Shown in pieces: positions 10,626 to 59,925 of a stretch of 64,000 nt of DNA (position 1 is the stretch's first letter; each line of letters opens with the position of its first letter). This DNA comes from Candidatus Parcubacteria bacterium (GTDB taxonomy: Bacteria > Patescibacteriota > Minisyncoccia > UBA6257 > HR35). The position numbers and the translations under genes are program-made. The stretch lies in assembly GCA_026004535.1 (NCBI GenBank), contig BPJI01000001.1, forward strand, positions 15,915 to 79,914, in the 5' to 3' direction. A model generated the notes under the pieces. The model was not told the origin of the DNA. It saw only the letters and a list, made by a program, of their open reading frames with translations, and did no database searches.

Positions 10626-10750
10626 CAGAATATCTATTTTCCAATATCTTCATAAAATATTAATGTAGAAAATTCTCTTGAAAAATTTTGAAGATGATAT
10701 AAATATTACTACTCAAAGTTATTCAATCAACTGAATGCTCCATAATAGTA

Positions 10751-37187: not shown

Positions 37188-37298
37188 TTTTAAAATGGTC
37201 TGTTTTATAATTATTTATATTATAATAAAAACAAGACGTACGACGTTCATTCTGAAACCTAACCACTAAAAGCTGATTAGCCGTAAAGTTTTTTATTT

Positions 37299-37345
37299 GC
37301 TCCTGTAGCTCAATTGGAACAATAGTTGCCTTTCAAGCAAACAAA
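37299..37345 (+). other. tRNA-Arg 5' fragment, a partial duplicate of the downstream intact gene.
   Basis: gctcctgtagctcaattggaa is identical to the first 21 nt of tRNA-Arg at 37512, then diverges. Confidence 0.4.
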
Positions 37346-37511
37346 AGATCGTTTAGCTAAAAAACCCCCGAAAATATATTAATTTTTTGTTTAAATCTTT
37401 TCCTTATAGGAGAAAAAAATAGTAACACAAAATTCATATTTTGTCAATAGCGATTGACTAAAACAAAATTTGCTTTTAAAATCAATGTTTTTATAATATA
37501 ATTAAATTGTT

Positions 37512-37584
37512 GCTCCTGTAGCTCAATTGGAAGAGCGTGTGGCTTCGGACCACAAGGCTGGAGGTTCGAGTCCTCCCAGGAGCA
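37512..37584 (+). tRNA. tRNA-Arg (anticodon TCG).
   Basis: gctcctgtagctcaattggaagagcgtgtggcttcggaccaca..., anticodon loop ctTCGga, T-loop GGTTCGAGTCC. An upstream TTGCTT-17-TATAAT-like promoter is present. Confidence 0.8.
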
Positions 37585-37747
37585 AAAAAAATCAATTTGT
37601 CAAGTATTGAAAAGAGATTAAAAAATTAATTAAAAATTGGAAATTTTTAATGGTTTTCCCTATCTCTAAATCATTTTTATTATTTCTTCTGTTATAGCAA
37701 TGAGTAATGGAAAAATTAATAAGAGATTCGATGCTTTAAATTTTTTG

Positions 37748-37875
37748 TGCTGGGGGTGGGACTCGAAAACGGTAAACTCCACGCCAGTATTATCAAAAAC
37801 AAAGCCCTTTGACTCTCGTTCCTGTTTAGTGATTTTAATTCGTTGGATTGTAGTGGGTTCATCGCCCACCCTCAG
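37748..37875 (-). ncRNA. tRNA-adjacent conserved element, copy 2 (about 128 nt). Its 3' end copies the tRNA-Leu T-loop/acceptor.
   Basis: Same core as copy 1 (gggtgggcgatgaacccactacaa, cactaaacaggaacgagag, cgtggagtttaccgttttcgag). It ends gagtcccacccccagc, identical to the tRNA-Leu 3' end. It lies 52 nt 3' of tRNA-Leu. Confidence 0.4.
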
Positions 37876-37927
37876 CTGGTAATGATAGTTTTGTGAACGA
37901 CATAAAGGTTCTACTCCATTACGTTTT

Positions 37928-38013
37928 TGCTGGGGGTGGGACTCGAACCCACATGCTCCAAAAGGAGCCCATGGTCCTAAGCCATGGCTGTCTACCAATT
38001 CCAGCACCCCAGC
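37928..38013 (-). tRNA. tRNA-Leu (anticodon TAG) with a long variable arm.
   Basis: Reverse complement gctggggtgctggaattggtagacagccatggcttaggaccatgg..., anticodon loop ctTAGga. Confidence 0.75.
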
Positions 38014-38160
38014 ATCAGAATGAATATCCGTGTAAATCCGTGGTTATTTGATAATCCGTGTACCCCGAACCAGAGCAAAGCACGATTCGGGGTTACCCCG
38101 TACCGTACTTCATTTCTGGTACGGGGTAAATCCGTTTTAAATCCGTGTAAGTCCGTGGTT
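38014..38160. repeat. Two adjacent GC-rich hairpins bracketed by 24 bp direct repeats (aaataaccacgga[c/t]ttacacggat). A possible terminator or small structured insert.
   Basis: Hairpins accccgtacc...ggtacggggt and ccccgaa...ttcgggg. Direct repeats at about 38026-38050 and 38135-38160. Confidence 0.45.
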
Positions 38161-38392
38161 ATTTAAAAAACATCTCAATTAATTTAGGAATTGTCCTTGA
38201 AAGAAAAACTAAAACAATCCCTCCTAAAATCAAACCCCATCTTTTATGAACTTTCTTTATTTTTTCTTCAGCTGGCGAAGTTATATAAATTATGCCTAAA
38301 TAAATTATAACTCCAGCCAACAAACTAAGAGATAAAACAAAAATCAAATTAAACAAACTATTAATTAACTTTAAAAATCCTGGCTCGATCAT
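38159..38392 (-). CDS. Pilin-like small membrane protein, paralog family member 1.
   Basis: Two hydrophobic helices separated by a basic loop: LAGVIIYLGIIYITSPAEEKIKKVHKRWGLILGGIVLVFLS. Confidence 0.5.
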   Translation of the reverse strand: MIEPGFLKLINSLFNLIFVLSLSLLAGVIIYLGIIYITSPAEEKIKKVHKRWGLILGGIVLVFLSRTIPKLIEMFFK

Positions 38393-39093
38393 TGTAACTT
38401 AGTAAAGAATAAGTCAATCATCTTGACAATTGTAAATGAAAGGATAGCAATAACTATACCAATAATACCATAAATTAATCTTTTATGAATATCCTTACTC
38501 TTTTCAGGTTTGGTTATATATAAAATTCCTGCCCAAGAAAGAAAAATTACTCCCAAAAATATTGCTAAAACATATAACAAAGATAAAATTCTTTGAAGAT
38601 AATATAAAAAACAATCTTTCCAAGCTGCTCCAGATACATTTGTACTTTCTAAAACCGAGGGGATATTGCATCCAGCTATTTTTTTTGGTAATTCTGGTTC
38701 AGTTACCTGAGCATAAGTAAAATTTATTGGCAAGTATATTTGTTGTTTAGTTAGCCAAGTCTCTATAGCCATAACAAAAGCATAAGAAAGCAAAGCAACA
38801 ACTAAACCAATTACTGCATAAATTATTTTTTGATGAATTTCTTTTCCTTTTTCACCCGGGCTTCCCTTAGAAATATATAAAATTCCAGCCCAAGCAATAA
38901 AAATCGCCGCCAAAACCAAAGCTAAAACTATTATAATCCTTAAAATTTTATTAAAGAAAAATCCTAAACAAGCAAAAAAATTCTCTCCACAATCAATAAC
39001 TGGAGGCAAATTAATAGAAGGAAAACCTAAATTCTGAGCCAAAACAATATTAAACAAAACCAACCCTATTATTATTTTTTTCATTATAATCAC
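38389..39093 (-). CDS. Pilin-like membrane protein with an internal tandem duplication (paralog 2).
   Basis: Module one: LAAIFIAWAGILYISKGSPGEKGKEIHQKIIYAVIGLVVALLS. Module two: IFLGVIFLSWAGILYITKPEKSKDIHKRLIYGIIGIVIAILS. Each module has the family motif (W/A)AGI.YI...K....(R/K).IY..IG...A.LS. Confidence 0.55.
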   Translation of the reverse strand: MIIMKKIIIGLVLFNIVLAQNLGFPSINLPPVIDCGENFFACLGFFFNKILRIIIVLALVLAAIFIAWAGILYISKGSPGEKGKEIHQKIIYAVIGLVVALLSYAFVMAIETWLTKQQIYLPINFTYAQVTEPELPKKIAGCNIPSVLESTNVSGAAWKDCFLYYLQRILSLLYVLAIFLGVIFLSWAGILYITKPEKSKDIHKRLIYGIIGIVIAILSFTIVKMIDLFFTKLQ

Positions 39094-39096
39094 TCA

Positions 39097-39495
39097 CTAT
39101 ATTCTTCCCCCACCTATAATCCTAGTGAATATAGTAACTAAAACCCATGACAAAAAGGCAAAAATTAAGCCAATTGCCGCATAAATGAGACGATTTTTAG
39201 CTGCTTCTCTTTTCTTATCGTCAGTCCCACCTGATATATAAGTGATGCCGGCCCAAGCAATGGATAAAGCGGAGAAAATTAAGGCAACAACCAAAATAAC
39301 CCTCAATAAATCTCCTAAAAGTTTCAACATACATCGTCTTAAAGTATCGTTTGGCGAACAACTAAAAAGTCGTGTGGGGATATCTGGCTCGGGCAAAACT
39401 TCAGGACTATATACGTACTGGGCAAAAGATGAATAAGGTGCTAAAAGTGTCAATAAAGTAAGCAAAATAATTAGTTGATTTAATTTCATCTTCAA
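39097..39495 (-). CDS. Pilin-like small secreted/membrane protein (paralog 3).
   Basis: Signal peptide, then LIFSALSIAWAGITYISGGTDDKKREAAKNRLIYAAIGLIFAFLS. Confidence 0.55.
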   Translation of the reverse strand: MKMKLNQLIILLTLLTLLAPYSSFAQYVYSPEVLPEPDIPTRLFSCSPNDTLRRCMLKLLGDLLRVILVVALIFSALSIAWAGITYISGGTDDKKREAAKNRLIYAAIGLIFAFLSWVLVTIFTRIIGGGRI

Positions 39496-39542
39496 AATTC
39501 TTTTTAACCTCGACCTTTTTCTATTAATAATTATATCATAAA

Positions 39543-39956
39543 TTACGGCGAAGGACCCCCTAATAAAGCACTAATAATTGTGAAAATTAAAGTAACTAAA
39601 AGTAGCAAAATATAGCCAAACACTGCATATTTTATATATTTATGACCTTTCTGAATATAGTTTTCCACACCCAAAGGACTTAATAAATACATTAAGCCAC
39701 CTAAAATAAGGAGAATAACAAGAACATATGGAGAAATTGTTATCAAAAGATTATTAATTCTCTTAAAAAAATCTATTAGAGAAGGATAATTCCAGCAACC
39801 ATCTTTAGCCGGCTCAACTCCAAAAATTCCCGGCGGACAAACTGAAATTTGAACTGGAGTCCAAGTGACAATAACTTGTCCTGGTTCAAAGTTTTCGTTA
39901 GCAAAACTAAAATTTAAAACTAAAAGCGAAATAATAAGAATGATTATTTTTTTCAT
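39543..39956 (-). CDS. Pilin-like small membrane protein (paralog 4, divergent).
   Basis: Signal peptide, two TM helices, YIQKGHKYIKYAVFGYILLLLV. Confidence 0.45.
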   Translation of the reverse strand: MKKIIILIISLLVLNFSFANENFEPGQVIVTWTPVQISVCPPGIFGVEPAKDGCWNYPSLIDFFKRINNLLITISPYVLVILLILGGLMYLLSPLGVENYIQKGHKYIKYAVFGYILLLLVTLIFTIISALLGGPSP

Positions 39957-40651
39957 CTTACTAATCTTTCAATTTGGGCTCTGATTAAATCTGCTAATAA
40001 AATAATTATTAAGCCAACCGTTGACCAGATTAAAATTTTGTAAGCCCGCGAAATTTGTTTTAAACCAAATAATGGAGTTGCTATTAAATAAACAGCAGCC
40101 CAAATAATTGCTCCAGCTAACAAAACAACAGCAACATTTTTCAAAAGACCAATTGCTTGAAATGCACATCTATAAACTCTACCCAAGGAAGGGCTATTAA
40201 AAAGAGGTGGGGCATTTTGACCACATTTTAACTCTGACATTATTGGAGTTTTTAATGGATTAAAAAAGGTTCTTGGGGTAAGATCCTGAGCTAAAGCAAA
40301 TTGAGGAGAGAAGAATTCTAAAATAATCTCAAAAACAATTCCTGATAATAAAACCAAAATATAACCCCAGATAGCAATTCTAATCATTTCTCTACCCCTT
40401 TTTAACAAACCCTCATTTGGTCCAGCAAACATCATTAAAAAAGCACCAATTGAAACAAGCAAAAAGGCAGTCCAATAAGAAACAATAACAACAGTTTTAA
40501 TAAGATTATTAACACTTTTAATAAAATCTTGCCAAGTGCAAATTGTTGTTGTACTTCCTTTAGGAGTTGTGGTCACCGTACATTCAACAATTGCAGCTTT
40601 GGTTAAGCTCAAAAAAGCTAAACATAAAATTATTAAAGTTATTTTTTTCAT
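39953..40651 (-). CDS. Pilin-like membrane protein with a duplicated module (paralog 5).
   Basis: Signal peptide. VSIGAFLMMFAGPNEGLLKRGREMIRIAIWGYILVLLS. A second module: LLAGAIIWAAVYLIATPLFGLKQISRAYKILIWSTVGLIIILLA. Confidence 0.5.
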   Translation of the reverse strand: MKKITLIILCLAFLSLTKAAIVECTVTTTPKGSTTTICTWQDFIKSVNNLIKTVVIVSYWTAFLLVSIGAFLMMFAGPNEGLLKRGREMIRIAIWGYILVLLSGIVFEIILEFFSPQFALAQDLTPRTFFNPLKTPIMSELKCGQNAPPLFNSPSLGRVYRCAFQAIGLLKNVAVVLLAGAIIWAAVYLIATPLFGLKQISRAYKILIWSTVGLIIILLADLIRAQIERLVR

Positions 40652-41835
40652 AATGAATAATTTATTTCAACTAAAATTCTATTTAATTCATTTTCATCTT
40701 TGTGATAAACTTCTAAAATTCTATCTATATTATTAAATAAAACTTCTTTATTAAGAAAATCAAAGGTTTCGCCGAAATTTTTAACTGAATCAAAAACAAT
40801 TTTCTTTTCTGGAGTTAAATCAGCTTCTTTAAATGGCACTAAATCAAGATCTTGACTAAATCTTTTTAATTGCATTGCATAAAACCAATTAATGAAATAA
40901 GGTACTGCTTTGGATCGACTTTTTTTAACCTGAGCTAAATAAAAAATTTTTGAATAAATTTTGACTTTTGGTGGAAAAGTGTTTAAGGGATAAATATCTA
41001 AACTAAGATTAATTCTTGGATTGATTTGCAAGATTTCTTTTTTATCACTGTAAAAACCAATGTACATGGCAGATTTTTCATTGGCAAAATTAATCAAATC
41101 ATCACCTGCGTTCTCAGGATAAGTATAAAACTCACTTTGAGGATTATTAAAACTAGTAAAAATATCTAAAGCTGATAAAATATTTTTCTGAAATTCTTCT
41201 TTTTGCTTATATGACTCATTCAGACTCATCAAACTTAAAATAATTTCTTTTCTATGTCTAATTTCTTTAGTGCCTAAACCTAAAGGATAAAAATCTTGGC
41301 TATAATTTTTAAATTGTTGGATAAAGTTTTTAAGCTCATCGAATGTTTTTGGTTTTTGTAAATTTAAAAAATTTAAAATGTCCTGGTTATAGAAAGCAAT
41401 TAGAGAATCAACAATAATTGGCGTTGAGCTCGAAAATAAATCAGGTTCTTTATTTAAAAAATCATTATCAATTAAAACAATATCAGGAAAATCACCTTTG
41501 GCAAGAGCCAAAATCAAGTCTCTCTTTATCTCTTCTAAGTTTTTAGTTGTAATTTCAAAATTAACACAATAACGACTAAAATCAGAAAAATAGGGATAAA
41601 TTTGATCTTCTATAAATGGTACCCATATTTTTATTGTTTCTTGATAGCAGGGTGTTTTCACTTTTTTGGGGAAAATTATTGGCCGAAAAATAAAAAATAA
41701 AATTAAAAGTAAAATTAGATTGCCAGCAACTATTATTTGCAAAAGTCTATCTGTTTTCAGTCTTCCTAAAAATCCCTCAGCCTGACTATCTCTAACAGAC
41801 TCTATAAATTCTTGAAACTTTGTTTTTTCTTTCAT
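40648..41835 (-). CDS. Membrane-anchored extracytoplasmic protein with weak resemblance to family-1 solute-binding proteins.
   Basis: N-terminal TM. TIKIWVPFIEDQIYPYFSDF...LAKGDFPDIVLIDNDFL resembles the SBP_bac_1 N-lobe. Confidence 0.35.
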   Translation of the reverse strand: MKEKTKFQEFIESVRDSQAEGFLGRLKTDRLLQIIVAGNLILLLILFFIFRPIIFPKKVKTPCYQETIKIWVPFIEDQIYPYFSDFSRYCVNFEITTKNLEEIKRDLILALAKGDFPDIVLIDNDFLNKEPDLFSSSTPIIVDSLIAFYNQDILNFLNLQKPKTFDELKNFIQQFKNYSQDFYPLGLGTKEIRHRKEIILSLMSLNESYKQKEEFQKNILSALDIFTSFNNPQSEFYTYPENAGDDLINFANEKSAMYIGFYSDKKEILQINPRINLSLDIYPLNTFPPKVKIYSKIFYLAQVKKSRSKAVPYFINWFYAMQLKRFSQDLDLVPFKEADLTPEKKIVFDSVKNFGETFDFLNKEVLFNNIDRILEVYHKDENELNRILVEINYSL

Positions 41836-42353
41836 TTCTGAGAAACTATTAAGTAATAATTGCTTGACTGTTCTATTTCTTTAATTTTAAAATTTTCTTT
41901 TTCAACTAATCGACAAATTTCTTGAGGATCATAAATTTTTTGTCCGGCAAAAAGTAGATTTTCTCTTTGGGGTTCTAAAATTATTAAATAACCTTTATCT
42001 TTTAAAACCCTTCTTGATTCTTGAATAATTTTCTCTGGATCTTCAGCTTGATAAAGAACCTGGGAAATAAAGACAAAATCTAATGAATTGTCTTCTAAGC
42101 CTGAATTTATTTCTAAATCCTGATTTAAAAACTTAATATTATGTAAACCAAATTGGCTTACAAATTCTTGAGCTTCTTTTAAAACTTCCTCATCGATATC
42201 AATGGCATAAATTTTGCCACTCGGACCAACTTCTTGGGCCAATAAAGCCGTAAAATAACCAGCACCACAACCGAAATCCGCACCTTTAATCGAAGGTAGA
42301 ATATATTTTTTTTCTCTTAAATGTTGAATTATTTCTCCAGGCCTTAAAAACAT
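41832..42353 (-). CDS. Class I SAM-dependent methyltransferase.
   Basis: Motif I DFGCGAGYFTALLAQ, motif II KIYAIDID. Length 173 aa. Confidence 0.6.
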   Translation of the reverse strand: MFLRPGEIIQHLREKKYILPSIKGADFGCGAGYFTALLAQEVGPSGKIYAIDIDEEVLKEAQEFVSQFGLHNIKFLNQDLEINSGLEDNSLDFVFISQVLYQAEDPEKIIQESRRVLKDKGYLIILEPQRENLLFAGQKIYDPQEICRLVEKENFKIKEIEQSSNYYLIVSQK

Positions 42354-44665
42354 TAAATTAATAAAATTGAATTAATAAAATTAAGATTGTCGATTTTCTT
42401 TGGCACTTGTGTTCTTTTTATTAGTGGCAATTTCTTAATTTCTATTCTTTTTAATTTATCATCGGCAATTATGATTTCCTTTTCATCCTTGATTGATTCA
42501 GCAGCCAAAAGCTCGCCATACTTATTGTCAAAAATTTTAACACCAACACCACCTCGGTTTTGAATTTTAATTTCTTGAAGATCAATTTTTTTATAAAAGC
42601 CTTGTTGAAAAATTAAAAGTAAAAGATTGCTATTTTTAACAAAAGCTTTCGTAATTTTTTCATTTTTCAATTTCATTATCTTTACTCCTTTAGCAGTTTT
42701 TCTTTGTAAAGGTAAATTTTCTTTAAAAAGCAAAATATTACCACTATTATTTATAACTCCTAAGGTTTCTCCCCCATTAATTAAAAAAGCATCAACAACT
42801 TCATCTTTCCCAGCTGAAACACCGCTTCTTCTGTTAGTTAAAACCTCCTCTAATTCAATTTTTTTGCCCAAACCATTAGCAAAAATTAATAATAAGTATT
42901 TTGCTTTTTCTTGAACTAAAATTTTTACAATCTCATCATTTTTATCCAAAATAATTTGTGATTCCAGATATTTAGCTGAAGAATAAAAAGACCCTAAACT
43001 CAGATTATAAACCTTGCCTAAACGACTGATTAAAATTAATTTATCATGAGTTGAAACTAATTTTAAAATTTTTGGTAGTTCATTTTGTTTTATTACTTTT
43101 TCAAGATTAAATTTATCAACAGGAATTAGATTAACTAAATTTTTCCGATCGACAACTAACCAAACTTTTTCTTCAGGAATAATTTCTTCTTTTTTAGTAA
43201 AAATTAATTCTTGATTAATAATATTTGTTAGTCTTTCGCTTGGATAGTTTTTAATAATTTCATCTGCTTCTCCAACAATTATCTCATCTATTTTTTTGGC
43301 GCTTTTTAAAATTAATTCTAATTCTTTGATGATCGATCTTCTTTCTTTTAGTTCGTCTAAAATTTTATGTCTTTCCATCTGAGTTAGGGTTCGAAGGGGC
43401 ATTTCTAAAATTGCATCTGCTTGTTTTTCTGAAAGTTTAAATTTCTTCATTAAATTTTCTAAAGCTTCTTTTTTATCTTTGGCTTTTTTAATTGTATTAA
43501 TGACTTTATCTAAGTTTTCTAAAGCAATATCAAAACCTTCCAGTAAATGAACTCTCTCTTTATTTTTTTCTAAATCAAATTTTGTTCTTCTTTTAATAAC
43601 CTCGCGTCGATGTTGTATCCAGGCAATTAAAAGTTCTTTGAAGGAAAAAATTTTGGGTTGAATTCCTTTATCTAAAGCAATCAAATTAAAATAAAAAGTT
43701 TTAGCCAAAGAAGTCAAGCGATAAAGATTTTCTTTTAATTTTTCTAAATTGGCCTCTGATCTTGTTTCAATTACAATTCTTATCCCCTCTTTACTTGATT
43801 CATCACGCACATCCTTAATTTCAGGCAAAACTTTTTCCAAGGCTAGATTAGCAATTTCCTTAACTAATTCTGCTTTATTTACTTGCCAAGGTATGGAAGT
43901 TATAATTAGTCTTTCTTTTCTGCCTTGCTCAATATTGATCTCTCCAGCCAAAGTTATGCCACCTTTGCCTGTTTCATAGATTTCTTTTAATTTTTCGGCA
44001 CCATAAATTTTGCCTCCAGTTGGAAAATCAGGGCCTTTAACGTAATTTAAAATCTCTTCAGTTGTTGCTTCTGGTTTTTTAATCAAAAATTTAATTGCTG
44101 ACATAACTTCAGTTAAATTATGAGGCGGAATTGAGGTTGCCATACCAACAGCAATTCCTAAAGAACCATTAATAATTAAATTTGGAATTTTCGAAGGTAA
44201 GACAACCGGCTCCTGACGAGTATTATCATAATTTGGTCTAAAATCAACAGTTTCTTTATCAATATCAACCAACATTTCTTCAGCAATTTTTGAGAGTTTG
44301 GCCTCTGAGTAACGCATTTGAGCTGGCGGATCACCATCAATTGAACCGAAATTTCCCTGCCCCCAAACTAAAGGATATCTTAAAGAAAAATTCTGAGCCA
44401 TTCGAACCAAGGCTTCATAAATTGGTGCATCACCATGGGGATGATAACGCCCCATACATTCACCAACAATGGCTGCGCATTTTCTGAATTTCTCTCTGGC
44501 CCATAACCCTAATTCTTTCATTGTATATAAAATTCTTCGCTGAACAGGTTTTAAACCATCGCGAGCATCAGGTAAAGCACGAGAAACGATAACACTCAGA
44601 GCATAATCTAGATAAGATTGTCTTAACTCTTGAGAAATCTCCTGACTAATTATTTTTTCTTTCAT
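42353..44665 (-). CDS. gyrA: DNA gyrase subunit A. The start is assigned to the ATG ([10 protein letters not shown]). The longer track ORF begins at a GTG inside a palindromic element.
   Basis: QRDR-region [23 protein letters not shown]. The [16 protein letters not shown]...[11 protein letters not shown]-terminus aligns with the GyrA start. C-terminal beta-pinwheel repeats. Confidence 0.9.
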
Positions 44666-44689
44666 TTTATTAATATGCAGAGCATAATG

Positions 44690-44812
44690 AACTGACACTG
44701 AACATACTAAACCAACGCTGAACTAACAGAAGATGATGAATAAATAGTAAAATTATTCTATGAGTTTTGTGTTAGTTCGGTATAGTTCTGCGTATAGTTC
44801 TTTAAGTTATGT
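44690..44812. repeat. Palindromic element copy PE4, intergenic, in the gyrA 5' leader.
   Basis: gaactgacactgaac...gctgaactaacagaag...attattctatgag...tgttagttcgg...agttctgcgtatagttct aligns with PE1 gaaactgacgcagaactaacaaaattattctgtaagttctgcgtaagttct. Confidence 0.6.
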
Positions 44813-44813
44813 G

Positions 44814-45002
44814 TCATTTTATTAAATTGCCAACAGCTTCGAAAATAGTTGCTAAGCCTAGATTAAAATTTTGCCAAACAAAAGCTAATGTTTTTTCTGC
44901 TGGTGATGGACTAAGATAACCGCCCCAGATTGTACCACCACTAAACCACCAAAGAAAAATCAACACTAACATTATTGAAGTAACAAATAAAAACTTTTTC
45001 AT
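44814..45002 (-). CDS. Small hypothetical membrane protein.
   Basis: 62 aa, one TM helix, overlaps the next ORF by 4 bp. Confidence 0.3.
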   Translation of the reverse strand: MKKFLFVTSIMLVLIFLWWFSGGTIWGGYLSPSPAEKTLAFVWQNFNLGLATIFEAVGNLIK

Positions 45003-45472
45003 TGCAAGACAAAAATTAATTTATCGACCTTTTTCAAATTGATCTTTAATTTATCTCCCTTTGAACTTTGGAATTTTTCTAATTTAATATTTTTATTAGT
45101 TAAAATCAAATTTGGCTTAAATAGAGAAACCATTCTTTCATCAAAAAAGTCAACTAAAAACAAAGCTTCGACTTCTTTTTTAGTCATTCTAATTTTTTTA
45201 AGTGTTTCTTCGCTAAGTTCTTTGCTATAGACAAGGCTTCCCTCTTTGCTGTCAAAAAGATAAGTGATAAAATTTTTATTACTAAAGCCCCAAAAATAAA
45301 CATCGCCAACATTATATTCACCAGCAGAATTAAAAATTTTGTCATAATTAATATTTTTTGAGATATCAGTTAAAATTATATTCTTATCTTTAGAAACCGA
45401 AGGTGGATCAAGAACAAAATTTACACCATCTAAAACTAATTCATAATAATTATTTATTTTTTTAATTTCCAT
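44999..45472 (-). CDS. Hypothetical protein.
   Basis: 157 aa ORF. The GAATTA(A)CGAGTTAA motif lies 6 nt upstream of its ATG. Confidence 0.4.
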   Translation of the reverse strand: MEIKKINNYYELVLDGVNFVLDPPSVSKDKNIILTDISKNINYDKIFNSAGEYNVGDVYFWGFSNKNFITYLFDSKEGSLVYSKELSEETLKKIRMTKKEVEALFLVDFFDERMVSLFKPNLILTNKNIKLEKFQSSKGDKLKINLKKVDKLIFVLQ

Positions 45473-50733: not shown

Positions 50734-52752
50734 ATGCTAAGTAAAAACTTAAAAATTTTAATACTAATAACTACGGTGGTTATTTTCTTATTGCCATTTA
50801 ATAAAATAGAAGGCCTAACAACAGTTCCTGTAAGTGATTATGGAGCACGACAATTACTACAAAATATAGGTGGTTTATTAGACGTCTTAAATACTCAATT
50901 ACCAAAACTCTTAAATCCCTTAAATGTTAACACAAAAGGAATTTTAGAAAGCATGACTAATGAAAAATTAGACAAATATCTCAATGATTCTCTTAAGTTT
51001 TATGAACTAACTAGGTATGTTCAGTATTATGAAAATCAATTGAAAACTTTAGAAAAAGAGACCGAGAATTATAAAAAAGTTCAATTAGAAGAAGCAAAGA
51101 TAGCCGGTGCTTATCTTGCTTTACAAGAAATTGCACAACAAATAAAATGCACCGCACCATCCGTAAGAGATAAATTTAACGCTGCCATTGTTACAATTTT
51201 TAGTCCCTATGACTTAGCTAATAGAGCTTTAATTGGTTATTTTAAGGATATAATCAATTGTCGAGAATCATCAATGGAATCAACGATAACCAAAATGTCA
51301 AAACAAAAAAGCTCATTCGTTTTTTTACGACCATTCGTTATAACACCTTTTTTATCTCAAATAAATCTAGAAACAGACGTATCCGACTCCAGTATGATAC
51401 AAATTAAGTCAGCATTTTTAGAAACTGAACTTACAATCTATACAAACGATATAATTAACACAATATCGATCCTGGTTAACCAAAAAGTTAAAGAAAAAGT
51501 AAGAGAAAGAGAAAATGAAATTGGCACAATTAAACCCTATTATGAAAAATGTGTCTCTAAGTTAAATCTTGATACAGTAACTGATCAAGGAATAGTTTTT
51601 TGTACTGATTATAAAGTATATATCAGCGGAGAAGATTTTCGACAAATAGTTAGTGATTTAAAACGACAGATAACTAACCCTCAATTATCATTTAATCAAA
51701 CCTATGATTATCTGATGAATTTAATAAAATTTAATGAATCAACCACAGCATTAACAGTTTCAAATAGTGGTGATATATTTTTATCCGAAGCCCTAAAAGA
51801 AAAAATATGTGGAAGATTCGAGAAAGATAACGCAACAGCCGGACAATATAGCGCTTATACTCAATGCTTAAAAGATTTAGCTGAAAAATATAACGAGTAT
51901 ATAAAAAAAATTGAAGAAGAAATTAAACGTTTTAGAGACCTACAACTAGCCGCTGAATCTAAAACAGTAGAACTCGAAAATAAAGCAAAGGCGATAAATC
52001 TACCAAATGGATGCAGAGCTGGTAATAAATATTTATTTGAAATCAGAGAATATCTTGAAACAGAAAGAGAAAATTATAAAATAATAACCATCAGACTTTC
52101 AGATTTATTAGGCTTAATAGGCATTAAACTCAACGACATTAATAGGTCAATAAACCAAATGAACAGCACAATTCAAGAAATTGTTCGTGAAATAAATAAT
52201 CTTATCGATATTCTTAATGACGTCTTGAAGTTAGCAAAAATACCATTAAATATTCCACCTATAGCATTCGATATCCCTATTTTTAATGTACTCGATTTTA
52301 TATTAGGTATTGCTAAAGTAAATGCTTTACTTTTACCAGATACTATCTCAAAAATAAATAATATAACTAATAAAATATCGTCCTCGGTAGATAGTGTCGA
52401 AAATCTTTTTAACGAGAACATAGCTAATATAAATGATTTCCAAAAAACATTGAGTGAAACTTATGATAGATATGATATCTTAAGCGCCAACAATAGATTA
52501 ATGAATGACTATCCATATCTTGAGGAGAAATTAAACATATACGAAGAGTTAACTAAGCAAGATAGAGAAACCTTAGAAAAGATGGGAGTTTGCCTCGAAG
52601 AATTTTATCCATTTATTACTGACAAATCTTCAGAAAGGCAATCTTCTCAACGAATTACAATTAAACCGTCTGAGCAAAAATTTAGCTTTTTTGGTTATAT
52701 AGAAAATTTATTCAAACCAAAAATGGTTAAAATTATATACAATGAAAAATAA
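50734..52752 (+). CDS. Large secreted alpha-helical protein, hypothetical (possible T4SS surface/tip component).
   Basis: Signal peptide. 672 aa with coiled-coil segments. Confidence 0.4.
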   Translation: MLSKNLKILILITTVVIFLLPFNKIEGLTTVPVSDYGARQLLQNIGGLLDVLNTQLPKLLNPLNVNTKGILESMTNEKLDKYLNDSLKFYELTRYVQYYENQLKTLEKETENYKKVQLEEAKIAGAYLALQEIAQQIKCTAPSVRDKFNAAIVTIFSPYDLANRALIGYFKDIINCRESSMESTITKMSKQKSSFVFLRPFVITPFLSQINLETDVSDSSMIQIKSAFLETELTIYTNDIINTISILVNQKVKEKVRERENEIGTIKPYYEKCVSKLNLDTVTDQGIVFCTDYKVYISGEDFRQIVSDLKRQITNPQLSFNQTYDYLMNLIKFNESTTALTVSNSGDIFLSEALKEKICGRFEKDNATAGQYSAYTQCLKDLAEKYNEYIKKIEEEIKRFRDLQLAAESKTVELENKAKAINLPNGCRAGNKYLFEIREYLETERENYKIITIRLSDLLGLIGIKLNDINRSINQMNSTIQEIVREINNLIDILNDVLKLAKIPLNIPPIAFDIPIFNVLDFILGIAKVNALLLPDTISKINNITNKISSSVDSVENLFNENIANINDFQKTLSETYDRYDILSANNRLMNDYPYLEEKLNIYEELTKQDRETLEKMGVCLEEFYPFITDKSSERQSSQRITIKPSEQKFSFFGYIENLFKPKMVKIIYNEK

Positions 52753-54856
52753 AAATCTATTAATAATTTTTTTCTGTTTTGCACTGGTTATACTACCTTT
52801 AAAACAAGCTTGGGCTTTTATTTTTGATTGGCTAGGAGAAAAAGTTGTTAAAGGCATTGCTGGTATTATAAGATTTTTTACTAAATTTATACACGAACTT
52901 TTATTTTTCATAAATATAGATTTATTGGCTAAAATAGTAAATTATGTTGCGACACTAAATCCTTTTAAAGATGATGTTCAATATAGAGATGAGGGAGGGC
53001 AGACAAAAACAGTAATGTCTCCAGTAAAGGTTATCTGGAATATACTTAAAAATTTTGCTTATATTCTTTTAGTTTTTTCTGCTCTTTTTGCTGGTTATGA
53101 ATGGCTAATGGGAAAAGACGCAAACGCTAAAAGATTGATTTTCAATATTATTATTGTTGCTCTTCTAATTAGTTTCACTTTTGTTTTAGTTCGAGAAGCT
53201 TTTTTGGTTGTCTATGGTTTTGAAAAAGGAATAACTGGCGGTAATTCAAACCAAATTGGAACCATTATTGCTGCTTCATTATGGCAAAAAAATCCTTTTA
53301 CTGAGATAGATTCGTTTGCTAATAGTTTAGCATCACAACAAAGGGATAATGAGGAAATTTTTATATCATTAGCCAGTGCTATTGGTTATATCTTTATTAT
53401 TGTCTTTGATATGCTCATCCTCATCATTTTATTCATAACTGCCGTTTTGTTTATTATTCGTTACTTAATGATTATTTTCCTTGGCGGGACATCATCAATT
53501 GCTTTAGCAACTTTAGCTTTTCCTGAATTTAAAGGAGCACTTGGGCAAGTATTTGCTAATTTAAAGTTTTGGAATACATGGTTAGAATATTTTATCCGTT
53601 GGCTTTTGGTAATTCCTATTTTTGTTATTTTGGTTATTTTGGGTAATGCTTTAAAAGAAAATACTTTAGGCCAAATTCAAGCTCAATCTGTAAAAAGTGA
53701 TTTAATTGAGTTTATGATGCTACTTTTGATGCTAGAAGGTTGGTATATTATCTCGATTATTATCGCTAACAAAATTTCTAAAGGTGCAGCTAATCTGGGT
53801 AAAGCAGCAGCAACAGCGGCAATGCTCACTGTTGGTGGTTTGACTACCAAAGGGCTAATGAGCGCTGTTGGACCAAGAATTGGAAATATACTCTCGAAGA
53901 CTGGCGGAGAGGTAGAAGAACGTTTTGCTGGTCGTGGTTTCCTTGGGTCATGGGTTAGTCAAAAAATTGGTAAACCAGTAAAAAAAGCTGGTGAAGATAT
54001 GCTCAAAAGAAGATATGAACTAGAAGCTAAAGCAATTAAATCAAGAATTAGCACAATTGATGAACAATTAAGAAGGGAAAAAGATCCAGAAAAACAAGCA
54101 AAACTAACTGATCAATTAGTTCAATTAACAAAAAGATACGAGAATGTTCCTTATGTTTTAAAACAAATAAATGAAGAGATTGGTAAAATGTCAAGAATGT
54201 CCTTTGAAAAAATAGCGACAAATAAAGATGCTATAAGTCTTTTAGCAGGAGCTGACAAACCTCAAGAATTAAGAGAAAAAGTCATTAGTCAGGTTGATAA
54301 ATTGAGTAAAGGCACTTTAAGAAATATCTTGGGAGATAGAGAACTTTTGGAGGTTTGGAGCAAACTTTCTCTTGATGTTAGTAATGCTTTTATAGATAAA
54401 TTAGGCAAAGAGCTTAGTGATGCTGATGTTATTGAACAATTGACCAAAGAAGAAATAAGAAATCTTATACCTGGATTGCCAGGTAATTTTCAAAAAGCTA
54501 TCAATAGATTATCAAAGGGCTTTGTTGAGGCAGCTACCAAAAAAGATTTAGAAGCTGTAAGTAATGCTCTAGCTTCTTTGAGTGAAGATGTTTGGAGGCA
54601 ACCAGAAAATATTGATAAAGCGTTGAGGGGTTATGAATTAAACGATCAAGAAATCAAAGAGTCTCTTAAAAATGCTCTTACTCGAAGCACAAAGCCAGAA
54701 ATAATCATCAATACTTTAAGAAGCGCACCTAAAGGTGATCCTATAAGACGAACACTATCTTTATTAACTGATACGGAAATTAATGAAATAGAGAGAATTT
54801 TAACTCCTCAATTAAAAAATAAACTTGAAACGATCATCTTAGAAGAAAGCGCTTAA
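52742..54856 (+). CDS. Polytopic membrane protein (VirB6/TrbL-like) with a 350 aa cytoplasmic C-terminal extension.
   Basis: About 7 TM helices in the first 350 aa (FIIVFDMLILIILFITAVLFII...). It sits adjacent to the PrgI-like and VirB4 genes. Confidence 0.45.
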   Translation: MKNKNLLIIFFCFALVILPLKQAWAFIFDWLGEKVVKGIAGIIRFFTKFIHELLFFINIDLLAKIVNYVATLNPFKDDVQYRDEGGQTKTVMSPVKVIWNILKNFAYILLVFSALFAGYEWLMGKDANAKRLIFNIIIVALLISFTFVLVREAFLVVYGFEKGITGGNSNQIGTIIAASLWQKNPFTEIDSFANSLASQQRDNEEIFISLASAIGYIFIIVFDMLILIILFITAVLFIIRYLMIIFLGGTSSIALATLAFPEFKGALGQVFANLKFWNTWLEYFIRWLLVIPIFVILVILGNALKENTLGQIQAQSVKSDLIEFMMLLLMLEGWYIISIIIANKISKGAANLGKAAATAAMLTVGGLTTKGLMSAVGPRIGNILSKTGGEVEERFAGRGFLGSWVSQKIGKPVKKAGEDMLKRRYELEAKAIKSRISTIDEQLRREKDPEKQAKLTDQLVQLTKRYENVPYVLKQINEEIGKMSRMSFEKIATNKDAISLLAGADKPQELREKVISQVDKLSKGTLRNILGDRELLEVWSKLSLDVSNAFIDKLGKELSDADVIEQLTKEEIRNLIPGLPGNFQKAINRLSKGFVEAATKKDLEAVSNALASLSEDVWRQPENIDKALRGYELNDQEIKESLKNALTRSTKPEIIINTLRSAPKGDPIRRTLSLLTDTEINEIERILTPQLKNKLETIILEESA

Positions 54857-55477: not shown

Positions 55478-56035
55478 ATGGCTACCAGATTTTATGTGCC
55501 AAAATTTATTACTATTGAGGACAAATTAGCCGGACTTTTAACTTTTCGACAGCTTTTTGCTTTGTTGGGGGCTTTTCTTTTAAGCTTCCTAGTTTTTAGA
55601 ATTAACCAATTTTTAGGCTTTATTACCATGATAATTTCTTTTGGCACAGCTTTTTTATTAACTTTTGTTCATCTCAATGGCAAACCATTCGTTTATATTT
55701 TGCCTCAAGTTTTTGGCTTTGTTTTTGGTAGTAAAAGATTTGTCTGGCAAAAAATTGAAAAAGTAACTTATAAAGAAGTAGCCCTATCTCCAGAAATAAC
55801 CGATAGAGTTCCCTATCCTAAAATTAAGGAAAGAAAAAAAAATATCGGCGATAAAGCTGAAATAATTTTGGAATATCCTGAAACTAACATCAAAGAGAAA
55901 TTGTCTGTTTCTTTAAAAGAACCGATCGCCCTCCAAGCCGAAGAAATTAATCGTTATGTTCATCGTCATCTAAGCAATCCCAAAAATCCTTATCGCTTTT
56001 TTCCTTATGTTAAATTTTATCGAACCATAAAATGA
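55478..56035 (+). CDS. PrgI/TcpE-like (VirB3-like) small membrane protein of Gram-positive-type T4SS.
   Basis: YVPKFITIEDKLAGLLTFRQLFALLGAFLL followed by two TM helices. It sits immediately upstream of VirB4 with a 4 bp overlap. Confidence 0.5.
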   Translation: MATRFYVPKFITIEDKLAGLLTFRQLFALLGAFLLSFLVFRINQFLGFITMIISFGTAFLLTFVHLNGKPFVYILPQVFGFVFGSKRFVWQKIEKVTYKEVALSPEITDRVPYPKIKERKKNIGDKAEIILEYPETNIKEKLSVSLKEPIALQAEEINRYVHRHLSNPKNPYRFFPYVKFYRTIK

Positions 56036-56661
56036 TTGCCCCAACATTTTCTTTAATTAAAGTTAAAGACATTAAAAATGACACCTTAATCCTAGCTAAT
56101 GGAGGTTTAAGAGGCATCTTAGAGGTTAGTGGCCTTAATCTTTCTTTATTAGATGAAAAAGAGCAAGAAATAATTATTAATCAGTTTAAAAATTTACTTG
56201 ATGGTTTAGATTTTCCAATTGAGATTTTAGTTCTGTCGCGGATGGAAAATATTAATAATTATTTAAAAGTTTTACATTTAAGACTTGAAGAAGAAAAAGA
56301 TCCGCTAATCAAGTTTCAATTAGAAGAATATATTAGTTTTTTAGAAGATTATTTACAAAACCATAAGATAATGAAAAAAATTTTTTATCTTGTCGTGCCC
56401 TATGATTCAATTGAAACTGACTTGGGGCCATTGGCTAAAATTCAAAAACAATCTGGCTTGGGAGAAAATGAAGAAACAAAATTTGAACAATTAGAAGCAA
56501 GAATAAATTATGTAATCGATGCTTTAAATAGCGTTGGTCTTTCTGCTTTTAGACTTTCTGATTTAGAATTAATTGAACTTTTATTTGAAGTATATAATCC
56601 TAATTTAAGGTGGCAACAATTACCAAAACAAATTATTGAAAAATTAGCCGAGGTACTATGA
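56032..56661 (+). CDS. VirB4/TrbE-family N-terminal domain (CagE_TrbE_VirB-like), encoded as a separate ORF.
   Basis: DTLILANGGLRGILEVSGLNLSLLDEKEQEIIINQFKNLLDGLDFPIEILVL matches the VirB4 N-domain pattern. There is an ATGA overlap with the ATPase ORF. Confidence 0.5.
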   Translation: MIAPTFSLIKVKDIKNDTLILANGGLRGILEVSGLNLSLLDEKEQEIIINQFKNLLDGLDFPIEILVLSRMENINNYLKVLHLRLEEEKDPLIKFQLEEYISFLEDYLQNHKIMKKIFYLVVPYDSIETDLGPLAKIQKQSGLGENEETKFEQLEARINYVIDALNSVGLSAFRLSDLELIELLFEVYNPNLRWQQLPKQIIEKLAEVL

Positions 56662-58466
56662 TTAACATTCCAAAAATACCGTTTCTAAAACAAAACCAGA
56701 AAGCAAAGATTCCTATACCTCAAGAATTAACTGCTTTTGAAAAGGTGAAAGAATTAATTGCTCCTCCAGGAGCAGAATTTGCTACTGATTACTTTCAAAT
56801 AGGCAATATTTTTGGCCGAACATTTCTTGTCATAGATTACCCTTCTTATCTTTTTTCTGGTTGGTTAGAAAAAATAATTAATTTAGACGAGGCCTTCAAT
56901 TTAAGTTTATATTTTTACCCTCTAGAAACAGGAGCGGTTTTAAAACAACTAGAAAAACAACTGGCAAGAATATCCGTACAAATACTTGAACGTGAAGAGG
57001 CAGGTAAAGTTAGATCACCTGAATTGGAAGCGGCTTACAAAAATGTTGAAGAATTAAGAGATTTACTAGCTCAGGCTGAAGAAAGAATGCTCAAGGTTGG
57101 ACTTTATTTAACAATCTTTGCCAGTGACAAAAAAGAACTTGACCAAAAATCAATAAAAATTTCAAAAATCTTAGAAAGCATTTTGGTAACAGTCAAGCCA
57201 ATTATGTTTCTTCAAAAAGAAGCATTTATCTCAACTTTACCTTTAGGCTTAGATGAGATAAAAACTAACTATCATTTAAATTCCTCAACCGCCTCTTCGT
57301 TTTTCCCTTTCATTTCTTCGGAATTAGTTGATGAATCAGGAATTTTTTTTGGTATCAATCTTCAAAATGCTGGTTTTGTTATTTTAGATCGCTGGAAATA
57401 TGAAAACCCTCATTTAATCATTTTAGCTCGCTCAGGGTCTGGGAAATCTTACACAGCCAAATTAGAAGTAATGAGAAATCTAATGATAGGAACAGACGTT
57501 TTAATTTTAGATCCTGAAAACGAATATCAAAGTATTACTGATCTTTATGGTGGCTCTTTTATTCCTCTGTCTTTAAAAGCTGACAATACATTTAACCCCT
57601 TTGATTTGCCCCCTGTTTTACCCAACGAAGAACCGATTGATATTTATAAGGAACATATTGCTGATTTAATTATTTTTTGCCAATTAATTATGAATGAAAA
57701 ATTATCATCCGAAGATTTGGCAATTTTAGATCAAGCAATTAATCAAACCTATGCTTCATTTAACATCTTACCTCATCAAGATTTCTCTAAAATTGAAAGA
57801 TTTCCAACTTTAAACGATCTAGAAAAAATCTTAAATGGTCTTGTTGGTGGAAGTAAAATTGCAAGCAAACTCTATCCTTATACCCAAGGAAACTTCAGTG
57901 GCTTTGTTAATAAACCAACGACAGTTGAACTCAACAAAAGATTAATTGTTTTTGGTTTTAAAGATCTACCTGAAATTTTAAAACCAATTGGAATGTTTGT
58001 TGTTTTAAACTATATCTTAAACAGGGTCAGACGAGAAATGAAAAAAAGACTAGTGATCATTGATGAGGCTTGGTGGATAATGAGACAAGAAATTGGGGCT
58101 GAATTTTTGTTAAATGTTGTTAAACGAGGAAGAAAATATAATTTAGCTGTAACCAATATCACTCAAGACGTTGAGGATTTTCTTAATTCTCCTTATGGTC
58201 GACCAATTATTACCAATTCAGCTATTGTTTTTTTAATGAAACAATCAACAGCAACGATTGATCTTTGTGGTCAAACTTTTGCTTTATCTGAAGGCGAAAA
58301 GCAGTTTTTACTTCAAGCTGAAAGAGGGCAAGGTTTAATTTTAGTCGGCCAAAAAAAAGCGCCTGTTTATGTTTTAGCCTCCTATGCTGAAGATCAAATT
58401 ATTCGAACCAGACCCGAACAATTAATTGCCTTAAGAAAAGCCAAAGAGGCCTTAATGAAAAAATGA
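56658..58466 (+). CDS. VirB4-like type IV secretion/conjugation ATPase (C-terminal ATPase domain).
   Basis: Walker A LARSGSGKSYT. Walker B RLVIIDEAWWIM. ITQDVEDF. Length 602 aa. Confidence 0.7.
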   Translation: MINIPKIPFLKQNQKAKIPIPQELTAFEKVKELIAPPGAEFATDYFQIGNIFGRTFLVIDYPSYLFSGWLEKIINLDEAFNLSLYFYPLETGAVLKQLEKQLARISVQILEREEAGKVRSPELEAAYKNVEELRDLLAQAEERMLKVGLYLTIFASDKKELDQKSIKISKILESILVTVKPIMFLQKEAFISTLPLGLDEIKTNYHLNSSTASSFFPFISSELVDESGIFFGINLQNAGFVILDRWKYENPHLIILARSGSGKSYTAKLEVMRNLMIGTDVLILDPENEYQSITDLYGGSFIPLSLKADNTFNPFDLPPVLPNEEPIDIYKEHIADLIIFCQLIMNEKLSSEDLAILDQAINQTYASFNILPHQDFSKIERFPTLNDLEKILNGLVGGSKIASKLYPYTQGNFSGFVNKPTTVELNKRLIVFGFKDLPEILKPIGMFVVLNYILNRVRREMKKRLVIIDEAWWIMRQEIGAEFLLNVVKRGRKYNLAVTNITQDVEDFLNSPYGRPIITNSAIVFLMKQSTATIDLCGQTFALSEGEKQFLLQAERGQGLILVGQKKAPVYVLASYAEDQIIRTRPEQLIALRKAKEALMKK

Positions 58467-59086
58467 AAAAAATATTTTTCTTAATTATAATTACTTCTTT
58501 ATTGACAATTAAAAATTTTGCCTTGGCTAAGGATAATATTTATATCAGTTTTAAAAAAACTGCTGCTGGCTTGGTTATAGGTAATGAAATCTTTGATCAT
58601 CAAACAAAAAAATTTTTAAATCCAACTGAATATATTTATGAATGGACAATCCCAGCTTTAGGAATAAATAAGCAAATAACATATTCAAATATTATTTTTA
58701 TTCCATTAGAAGGTAAAATATCTAATATATCTAATATTTTCCTAAATCTAAAAGTAACCAAAAAATTTTCTGATAGGGTGTTTTATTTTAATGAACTTAA
58801 AGTATCATTGCTAAAGCCAAAGGTAGTAATTGGCTTAAAACGAAATAATATTCTGATCCCCTTGATATCTAAACTAAAACCTGATGATATTTTAACCCTT
58901 ACAACTGAAGGTTTCTCTTCAACTAATTTAAATTACATCTGGACATTCAATGAAGCTTTTATTTCTAACGAAAAAGAGATATCAGTCAGTAATTTAGAAG
59001 AAAAAAATGGTATAATAAAAATTAAGGTCTTTGCCCCACTAACTGGTGAAAAAGCCGAAGATTCAGCGCCAATCCAAATTGAATAA
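58463..59086 (+). CDS. Secreted/lipoprotein-like hypothetical protein.
   Basis: Signal peptide. 207 aa, beta-rich. Confidence 0.35.
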   Translation: MKKIFFLIIITSLLTIKNFALAKDNIYISFKKTAAGLVIGNEIFDHQTKKFLNPTEYIYEWTIPALGINKQITYSNIIFIPLEGKISNISNIFLNLKVTKKFSDRVFYFNELKVSLLKPKVVIGLKRNNILIPLISKLKPDDILTLTTEGFSSTNLNYIWTFNEAFISNEKEISVSNLEEKNGIIKIKVFAPLTGEKAEDSAPIQIE

Positions 59087-59925
59087 TGCCAAAAATTAAG
59101 TCACCATCAGAATATATCCAATGTACTGATATTGCTTCTTGTTTTCAAGCAATTTATAATTTCTTCTTTGCTCTCTTGATTGCTTTAGCTTTTTTATATT
59201 TTCTTTGGGGTGCTATTCAATATTTAATTTCAGGTGCAAATATATATCCAAAAGAGGAGGGTAAAAAGAAAATGAAGGATTCTATTATTGCTGTAATTAT
59301 TGCTTTAAGTGTGCCAATTATTTTAAATATGATTAATCCTGATATTTTTAGAGCAGAATTAAGCATACCAATAGTTGAAGCCCGTCTTCCTGGCTACATA
59401 TCTGCCCCAGAAACACCGCCAGCAGATATTCTACCATCAGGACAAAAAGTAGTTGATGCTCAACCAAATTCAAATTTAATGAATAAATTGAGGGATATAA
59501 ACTATATAAAGTATCTTATTATTGACTGTGACGCTTTGAGAATGACAATTGTTGGGGTTAATAACGAAGGTCAAGAAATCCAAGTAGCTAATGATATTCC
59601 AATAAATACCGGGAAACGGATAAATGGGAAAAATTGTAATGAAAAAAATGTACCAAACAGTCATACTACTCCTAAAGGTTCGTTTAAAATTTCAGGTAAA
59701 AGATATAATCCTAATGGTCTTGTATCATTAGAATCTGGAGCTTCTCTGGGCACCAGGGCTCTGGTATATCATCAACAACGCGGACTTCTTATTCATGGTA
59801 GCGCAACAGAAGAAAAAAATAGGAGTTTTCCGGAAACTTGGGGCTGTATTAGAATGAAAAATGAAGATTTAGCTGCTATATTTGACAAGGTAAGAGTAGG
59901 TACAACTATATTGAAAATTAAATAA
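59086..59925 (+). CDS. Pilin-like N-terminal membrane module fused to an L,D-transpeptidase (YkuD) catalytic domain.
   Basis: N-terminus ALLIALAFLYFLWGAIQYLISGANIYPKEEGKKKMKDSIIAVIIALSVPII carries the pilin-paralog motif. C-terminus LIHGSATEEKNRSFPETWGCIRMKNEDLAAIFD carries the YkuD H...GC(I)R motif. Confidence 0.55.
   Translation: MPKIKSPSEYIQCTDIASCFQAIYNFFFALLIALAFLYFLWGAIQYLISGANIYPKEEGKKKMKDSIIAVIIALSVPIILNMINPDIFRAELSIPIVEARLPGYISAPETPPADILPSGQKVVDAQPNSNLMNKLRDINYIKYLIIDCDALRMTIVGVNNEGQEIQVANDIPINTGKRINGKNCNEKNVPNSHTTPKGSFKISGKRYNPNGLVSLESGASLGTRALVYHQQRGLLIHGSATEEKNRSFPETWGCIRMKNEDLAAIFDKVRVGTTILKIK

Follow-up and report, generated by a model that had tools for sequence, protein, structure and literature searches.

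Why does a chromosome carry several diverged copies of a small pilin-like membrane protein side by side, and are such copies alternatives to one another or parts of one structure? The question is raised by five consecutive minus-strand genes at 38159-40651 of a 64,000-nucleotide (nt) stretch from Candidatus Parcubacteria bacterium (GenBank assembly GCA_026004535.1, contig BPJI01000001.1), which is called the window below and to whose whole length all positions refer. It is moderately probable, taking the evidence together, that the five genes form the VirB2-like pilin array of a chromosomal Patescibacteria type IV secretion system (T4SS) that works by the mechanism proposed below. New here are a fixed seven-fold orthology, gene fusion with a retained cleavage site and an apparently undescribed abundance of concatenated modules.

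Array genes and module architecture

The five open reading frames are adjacent and co-oriented, all present where the initial annotation of this DNA had placed them, and are named g5, g4, g3, g2 and g1 (Table 1). Packing is tight: ATGA overlaps of 4 nt occur at 38389-38392, 39953-39956 and 40648-40651. Hydropathy analysis found one helix pair in the proteins of 77, 132 and 137 amino acids (aa) and two pairs in those of 234 and 232 aa, as had been described. The modules are numbered in gene order: m1 and m2 (g5a and g5b), m3 (g4), m4 (g3), m5 and m6 (g2a and g2b) and m7 (g1). A multiple alignment placed the N-terminus of the protein encoded at 59086 in register with all seven modules, at 15-47% pairwise identity. 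Signal-peptide-like N-terminal segments were seen by hydropathy in four of the five array proteins; g5 has four hydrophobic helices in addition to its signal peptide, and a module hidden Markov model (HMM) found two domains in it. Candidatus Parcubacteria bacterium KatS3mg096 has proteins that match the g2, g5 and upstream gene products at 100% identity (g2 corresponds to KatS3mg096_044).

For comparison, the window was set beside loci L002, L005, L006, L007 and L009 (two metagenome contigs and three metagenome-assembled genomes, MAGs), which gives six genomes and 42 modules. Each module consists of a pair of hydrophobic helices with a short, positively charged loop between them, as judged from hydropathy, loop charge and an AlphaFold2 (AF2) model, and in m1-m6 a Cys-Xn-Cys pair precedes helix 1. 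This pair, missing from the initial description, is present in 36 of 36 m1-m6 modules, one of which has a third Cys, whereas none of the six m7 modules has the pair. The net charge of the inter-helix loop ranges from 0 to +3 in the 42 modules, which fits a topology with the N-terminus outside, the loop inside and the C-terminus outside. The AF2 model of g2 shows helical hairpins at H36-73/H78-112 and H154-191/H193-229, separated by a low-confidence linker (residues 116-128). The motif WAGI.YI..., initially ascribed to the whole group, holds for the 132 aa protein, both halves of the 234 aa protein and, loosely, the 77 aa protein. It does not hold for the 137 aa protein and the two halves of the 232 aa protein; these modules (m1-m3) are far more divergent, at 15-26% identity to the others in the eight-module alignment, and are recognized by profile only.

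Family assignment

The initial annotation had proposed a T4SS pilin family, and the profile searches bear this out. PF18895 (T4SS_pilin; gathering score 26.6 bits) was the top Pfam match of all five proteins, with E from 7e-11 to 0.012, and PF04956 (TrbC/VirB2; gathering score 27.9 bits) was second for g2 and g3. Two of the array proteins exceed the PF18895 gathering score: g3 (E 7e-11, 42.5 bits) and g2 (E 3e-10, 40.5 bits, in two stretches). Scanned alone, m4 reaches 43.7 bits. NCBIfam points to the 'Mbov_0395 family pilin-like conjugal transfer protein', with g3 matching NF045849 at E 1.3e-9, and many g5 orthologues carry a precomputed PF18895 match.

Weak matches of this kind call for caution, since hydrophobic two-helix proteins draw them to many membrane families. 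The genes might encode unrelated small membrane proteins (holins, type IV pilins or transporter subunits) that resemble pilins by hydrophobic composition only, a reading favoured by the modest scores and by JGI automatic annotations that vary widely (YjfL, FtsH-binding, DctQ). Against it, single-module Pfam scans of the 42 modules put PF18895 consistently first and found it in 39 (E<=0.01, down to 3e-12) and PF04956 in 13 (E<=0.01), with any other family confined to two modules at most, and the module co-occurs with VirB4. The Pfam scan of the array proteins gave no holin or N-methylation family at E<=1; the prepilin-peptidase motif G|(F/M)TLxE is absent near the N-terminus of all six proteins, and the array N-termini are instead of the Sec type (MKK-hydrophobic-AxA). 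Holins and type IV pilins, the outcomes that would have overturned the proposal, were therefore rejected, and mere compositional resemblance is highly improbable. The array modules very probably belong to PF18895.

A fixed set of seven modules

Relatives are Pacebacteria or Patescibacteria MAGs, and the five loci compared have GyrA proteins 62-85% identical to that of the window. All five keep the synteny gyrA, methyltransferase, 375-395 aa protein and array, and every one has exactly seven modules. When the modules were compared one by one, the best match was the position-matched (diagonal) one in 34 of 35 cases, the lone exception being a near tie (133 versus 135). Orthologues are 34-72% identical, compared with 16-47% for the paralogues within the window, and the outer-face segments, including the Cys loops, are conserved among orthologues. 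One-to-one, position-matched orthology implies that the paralogues are older than these lineages and that each has been maintained individually. By these sequence comparisons, the array is ancient and fixed.

The initial annotation had suggested 'antigenic or functional diversification'. On the antigenic side, the paralogues would be alternative versions of one pilin serving variation in antigenicity or host range, a role proposed for the VirB2 arrays of Bartonella and Anaplasma and suggested for Patescibacteria. The strong divergence of the paralogues is in keeping with this, being like the mean identity of 25% given for Patescibacteria arrays in a survey that suggests antigenic or host-range versatility (PMC12102498). 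Array size also varies among more distant lineages, with eight pilin genes in L016 and another layout in L011-L013. Such variation is set against position-matched orthology that persists although GyrA is only 62-85% identical, and against the conservation of the outer-face segments. The 4-nt overlaps and two fused pairs, which force 1:1 co-expression, speak against it too, and no recombination repeats or silent cassettes were seen. An antigenic-variation cassette should show fast lineage-specific turnover; here the orthologues are closer than the paralogues. A pool of variants is quite unlikely for these reasons; the antigenic half of the suggestion is disfavoured, and the old, fixed set points to functional specialization. 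Old paralogues, overlapping genes and fused pairs together favour seven specialized, co-expressed subunits over a pool of alternatives, and it is likely that the seven modules are non-redundant and used together.

The second type of array, in L011, L012 and L013 and including one in the sister MAG KatS3mg094, holds a protein of 515-526 aa (L011 6274-7821, L012 9521-11092, L013 11007-12587) whose single pilin module spans about residues 160-240; the rest of this protein has no Pfam match. Proteins of 278-279 aa beside the L012 and L013 arrays were considered as pilin-YkuD fusions and dropped, as Pfam found no YkuD domain in them.

Fused genes and a retained cleavage motif

The two long genes had been read as containing internal duplications. 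They are instead fusions of neighbouring old paralogues that are separate genes in relatives. A recent duplication was rejected because the halves are only 47% (g2) and 36% (g5) identical in local alignments and each has its own orthologue. In the window, L002 and L005 the seven modules are spread over five genes. Four other loci have six genes: L009 and L010 keep m5 apart from m6, and L006 and L007 keep m1 apart from m2. Orthologues of g2 fall into about 58 clusters (220-270 aa) and those of g5 into 46 (nearly all 212-255 aa); g1 orthologues are always the last array gene in relatives, at 76-87 aa.

Where a downstream pilin is encoded separately it carries its own full signal peptide, as in the separate m2 of L006 ('MKKIFLFITIFIIIQFVLA|QQ') and m6 of L010 ('MLKFSLLKIAILVIFLFPIFFVQ|MQQ'). 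The exception is L009 m6: in this Pacebacteria MAG (10239-10975) the g2 orthologue is split in the linker and m6 starts with the remnant 'MKFFHQFVLAQ', which may reflect secondary fission, a frameshift or an assembly error.

The linkers of the fused genes (Table 1) retain the signal-peptidase-type AxA|Q motif of the second pilin, so the fused proteins may be cleaved polyproteins. The linker residue A125 of g2 is invariant in 41 of 41 orthologues and A121 of g5 is nearly invariant among 41. In g2 orthologues the linker '..FNFVYA|QIQEP' mirrors the protein's own N-terminal '..FVFA|QD' ('..FVFA|QDLGFP'), and in g5 orthologues '...GPQIVLA|QTLEP' mirrors '..FALA|QG'. The low-confidence stretch of the g2 model includes the AxA|Q site. 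To judge from these sequences, the chances are even that the di-pilins are cut at the retained motif into two pilins.

Concatenated multi-module proteins

A profile search of the full library returned 22,574 cluster representatives at E<=1e-3. Among the best 150 of the 22,574, at least two modules occur in 107 and 10-16 in five, a ranking that is biased towards multi-module proteins because scores add. Single polypeptides with 7-16 modules are P0221, P0211, P0205 and P0209. P0221 (L023 10001-15328) is a 1775 aa chain of 16 modules, on a contig that also encodes Cas4 and a ribosomal protein L39e of archaeal type; P0209 (L016 8001-9821) is a 606 aa chain of seven modules inside a larger array with the same synteny of gyrA, methyltransferase and solute-binding protein. 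Many chains have short linkers without the AxA motif. Literature searches for fused or multi-domain VirB2 proteins returned nothing relevant, which is no proof of novelty.

Arrays of the module are not confined to Patescibacteria, as four tandem genes on a 2.4 Mb contig of a Dehalococcoidia MAG (L014 8279-11311) indicate: each encodes a protein of 211-242 aa in which a PF18895 module (E 1e-7 to 1e-11) comes first and some 140 aa without a family assignment come after it, and a VirB4-like fragment lies nearby.

Uncut, motif-free chains show that cleavage is no general requirement and keep alive a different explanation, in which the modules are permanent parts or anchors of a membrane or envelope channel and the hairpins, arranged in a ring or bundle, never leave the membrane to become filament subunits. 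ATP-synthase c-subunits offer a parallel, since their hairpins too can be fused into one chain. Relatives commonly have chains of 3-16 modules whose short linkers lack the motif, the module also serves as the N-terminal anchor of enzymes and of the L014 proteins, and no likeness to solved pilins was found. Pilins have moreover been argued to descend from bona fide membrane proteins (PMC9905601). Opposed to this are recognizable homology to pilin families only, reviews that deem a pilus likely (PMC12857230), and a conserved extracytoplasmic Cys loop with retained cleavage motifs, which suit an exposed, processed subunit. A static membrane role is on balance rather unlikely.

Secretion cluster, eighth module and upstream neighbour

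The window also carries a monoderm-type T4SS cluster with a VirB4-family ATPase, on the plus strand and 16 kb from the array (Table 1). The VirB4 protein has Pfam matches to TraG P-loop, AAA_10 and CagE_TrbE_VirB. Metagenome loci L018-L022 have the cluster in identical order and VirB4 proteins of 80-88% identity; the VirB6-like protein adjoins VirB4 also in L018 and L022, and the PrgI/VirB3-like protein is 56-74% identical to those of L018, L020 and L022.

Two genes downstream of VirB4 lies the eighth module. The initial annotation had recognized the array module at the N-terminus of this L,D-transpeptidase fusion, and the profiles agree (PF18895 E 1.4e-9, 38.4 bits; YkuD PF03734 E 1.7e-14). 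In L018-L022 only the module of about 100 aa is conserved, and the C-terminal domain is swapped relative to the YkuD of the window. The replacing domains are related to one another and share the motifs 'CHT..GTCID' and 'HLHLE' (H-x6-D, H-x-H); Pfam gave no match for them, and the motifs suggest that they are possibly LAS/M15 zinc peptidases. If the position is kept for a wall-peptide enzyme anchored by a pilin module while the enzyme domain itself is replaced, this would agree with a VirB1-like role. VirB1 is described as mostly missing in Patescibacteria (PMC12102498).

The gene directly upstream of the array encodes a membrane-anchored MalE-like protein with one N-terminal transmembrane (TM) helix. 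Its AF2 model has a pLDDT (predicted local distance difference test) of 91.8, and the top Foldseek matches are sugar-binding solute-binding proteins (E ~1e-15, TM-score up to 0.67). It precedes the array in every relative examined (L002, L005, L006, L007, L009 and the distant L016), and this synteny suggests that it may be a partner or accessory of the array. No ABC permease was identified beside the gene.

Table 1. Positions of the array, its linkers and the associated genes.
Feature	Position	Strand	Details
g5, di-pilin, 232 aa	39953..40651	-	Signal peptide, Cys pair, m1, linker, Cys pair, m2
g5 inter-module linker	40226..40309	-	'SPQFALA|QDLTPRTFFNPLK...'; AxA|Q motif at A121|Q122
g4, single pilin m3, 137 aa	39543..39956	-	PF18895; orthologues at the same position in five genomes
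g3, single pilin m4, 132 aa from TTG or 130 aa from ATG at 39489 (public records use the ATG)	39097..39495	-	PF18895, TrbC, NF045849
g2, di-pilin m5+m6, 234 aa from GTG or 231 aa from ATG at 39084 (public records use the ATG)	38389..39093	-	PF18895
g2 inter-module linker	38674..38748	-	'TKQQIYLPINFTYA|QVTEPELPKK'; AxA|Q motif; A125 codon 38710-38712
g1, short pilin m7, 77 aa	38159..38392	-	PF18895; without signal peptide or Cys pair
Membrane-anchored MalE-like solute-binding-protein homologue, 395 aa	40648..41835	-	4-nt overlap with g5, directly upstream
VirB6-like / pLS20_p028-like polytopic membrane protein	52742..54856	+	NF045890 E 8.1e-6; multiple TM segments
PrgI/VirB3-like protein	55478..56035	+	PF12666 PrgI E 7.3e-5
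TrsD-like protein, resembles the N-terminal part of VirB4	56032..56661	+	NF045975 E 4e-15; NF041427 TrsD E 3e-6
VirB4-family ATPase	56658..58466	+	NF045971 conju_CD1110 364 bits (cut-off 325), E 1.6e-108
Secreted protein, 207 aa	58463..59086	+	
Eighth pilin module + YkuD L,D-transpeptidase	59086..59925	+	PF18895 (residues 21-83), PF03734 (residues 142-275)
Pilin + enzyme genes in relatives	L018 6001-6816, L019 2262-3083, L020 4447-5427, L021 605-1384, L022 5995-6855		

Proposed mechanism

In the mechanism that we propose, each module would be a two-helix hairpin exported by a Sec-type signal peptide, which the last module lacks. Sequence features suggest that both termini of the hairpin would come to lie outside, leaving the short basic loop in the cytoplasm; the Cys pair, present in the sequence, would lie on the outer side and could form a disulfide. 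Homology with VirB2, TraA and CedA1 suggests that the hairpins would be drawn from the membrane at a VirB6/VirB3/VirB4 platform and stacked with lipid into a tube or pilus that would cross the wall and contact a host cell. The seven subunit types, kept in fixed gene order and probably co-expressed, are not interchangeable variants, and the structure would most likely be a defined mixture of them. The fused di-pilins would be cut by signal peptidase I after insertion, with the preceding N-in/C-out helix acting as signal. The eighth module may anchor a cell-wall peptide enzyme beside VirB4, and the MalE-like binding protein is a possible accessory. By analogy with the systems named, we hold it to be evenly balanced whether the modules are assembled at the VirB4/VirB6 platform into an extracellular tube or pilus.

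Several observations weigh against this account. To our knowledge, a pilus has not yet been seen for any PF18895 protein of Patescibacteria. The array lies 16 kb from virB4 and on the opposite strand. Three of the proteins fall below the PF18895 gathering score, g1 (E 8.6e-5, 23.0 bits), g4 (E 2.3e-5, 24.8 bits) and g5 (E 0.012, 16.1 bits, second module only), and the PF04956 matches of g2 (25.1 bits, E 2.1e-5) and g3 (18.9 bits, E 0.0018) are likewise below threshold. Searches of PDB sequences with di-pilin and single-module profiles gave spurious membrane and designed-coil matches only; Foldseek found nothing in the PDB at E<1 for the AF2 model of the di-pilin, whose loosely tethered hairpins make a poor query. 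As no solved pilin is linked by sequence or fold, the tie to characterized pilins is one of Pfam-level homology. Inserts of 20-60 aa between helix 2 and the motif in some g2 orthologues place the motif far from the helix for signal peptidase I, and chains of up to 16 modules are awkward for a pilin polymerized one at a time. The functional link of the MalE-like protein is likewise inferred, because gyrA and metG are syntenic too.

A wider reading, which we put forward tentatively as possible rather than probable, is that VirB2-like pilins of Patescibacteria, and of some archaea, are made as a fixed set of subunits coupled covalently or stoichiometrically. The seven modules would then form a hetero-oligomeric tube, di-pilins would be precursors that are cut, and chains of 3-16 modules would be uncut 'poly-pilins' that fix the assembly geometry. 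If true, T4SS pili or channels would be made in a way that was not found described in the literature searched.

A fixed seven-subunit set would mean that the published idea of host-range or antigenic variation does not apply to this lineage and that structural work must consider mixed filaments. The motif retained in the fused genes yields a simple, testable prediction on pilin processing, and the abundance of multi-module proteins suggests that concatenation is a general, apparently undescribed feature of the family. A pilin-anchored wall enzyme and a MalE-like neighbour could help to explain how the wall is crossed in monoderms and what the pilus binds.

Other features near the array

Immediately past the stop codon of g1 there is a GC-rich, strongly folding element at 38015-38175 (-50 kcal/mol, z = -4.0), flanked by direct repeats of 24-29 nt (38026-38054 and 38141-38169) that are unique within the window. 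Rfam gave no significant match for the element; candidates for its nature are a small RNA, a miniature insertion and a terminator-like structure. A promoter and terminator scan of 37600-45200 found sites no commoner than in shuffled sequence and was uninformative on operon structure.

Two tRNA genes, each with a partial duplicate, occupy the interval that separates the array from metG. In tRNA-Arg(TCG) it is the first 23 nt that are repeated, 213 bp upstream with 100% identity (37297-37319 and 37510-37532), and in tRNA-Leu(TAG) the last 24 nt, 180 bp downstream with 96% identity (37744-37767 and 37924-37947). The duplicates may be integration or excision scars. L002 and L005 have no called gene between array and metG; tRNA genes were not searched for there.

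Comparison with known systems

The closest known counterparts are the VirB2 arrays of Patescibacteria. Southlakia epibionticum has an essential series of predicted pilins inside its T4SS cluster (SEML1_0006-0019; Wang et al., 2023, PMC10633639; PMC12857230); in the one genetically tested Patescibacterium the T4SS and pilin array are essential for epibiotic life. A 2025 review regards the Patescibacteria systems as unique among monoderms in their potential to build a conjugative pilus (PMC12857230). Using PF18895 and PF04956, Quinonero-Coronel et al. (2025; PMC12102498) reported 441 arrays of 2-11 VirB2-like genes in 383 Patescibacteria assemblies, an array being at least two pilin genes in tandem or with one non-pilin gene between them. 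The window has five consecutive pilin genes in a Patescibacteria host, and its array is a further instance of this described feature. The same family, tandem divergent two-helix pilins and a relaxase-less, monoderm-type (MPF-FATA-like) chromosomal T4SS with TrsD, PrgI and VirB4 are common to both. The window array differs in lying between gyrA and metG, 16 kb from virB4 and outside the T4SS cluster, and in being of Parcubacteria/Paceibacteria type, whereas reported arrays are most abundant in Microgenomatia and Saccharimonadia. It differs further in its two di-pilin genes that keep the cleavage motif and in its seven-fold position-matched orthology; fusions, signal peptides and YkuD are not mentioned in the available part of the survey.

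With TrbC/VirB2/TraA (PF04956; T-pilus and F-pilus) the array genes share the signal peptide, the two helices, the basic loop and a VirB4 machine, with weak, sub-threshold profile likeness and no solved-structure match. Unlike those systems, the host is a monoderm without an outer-membrane core complex, a Cys pair precedes helix 1, seven distinct subunits take the place of one major pilin, and no sign of cyclization was seen here.

The Bartonella and Anaplasma virB2 arrays resemble the present one in having several tandem copies beside a T4SS. They are thought to serve antigenic variation, whereas the age of the copies in the window, their constant order and the fusion of some of them argue for their use together.

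VirB2-like pilins also form lipid-containing pili in single-membrane archaea (PMC9905601). The archaeal CedA1/TedC pili, which import DNA, have VirB2-like hairpins, a single membrane, VirB4/VirB6-like parts and no relaxase, as here, and offer a precedent for an import role. CedA1/TedC systems use one pilin, whereas some archaeal contigs carry concatenated PF18895/TrbC modules, 16 of them in L023.

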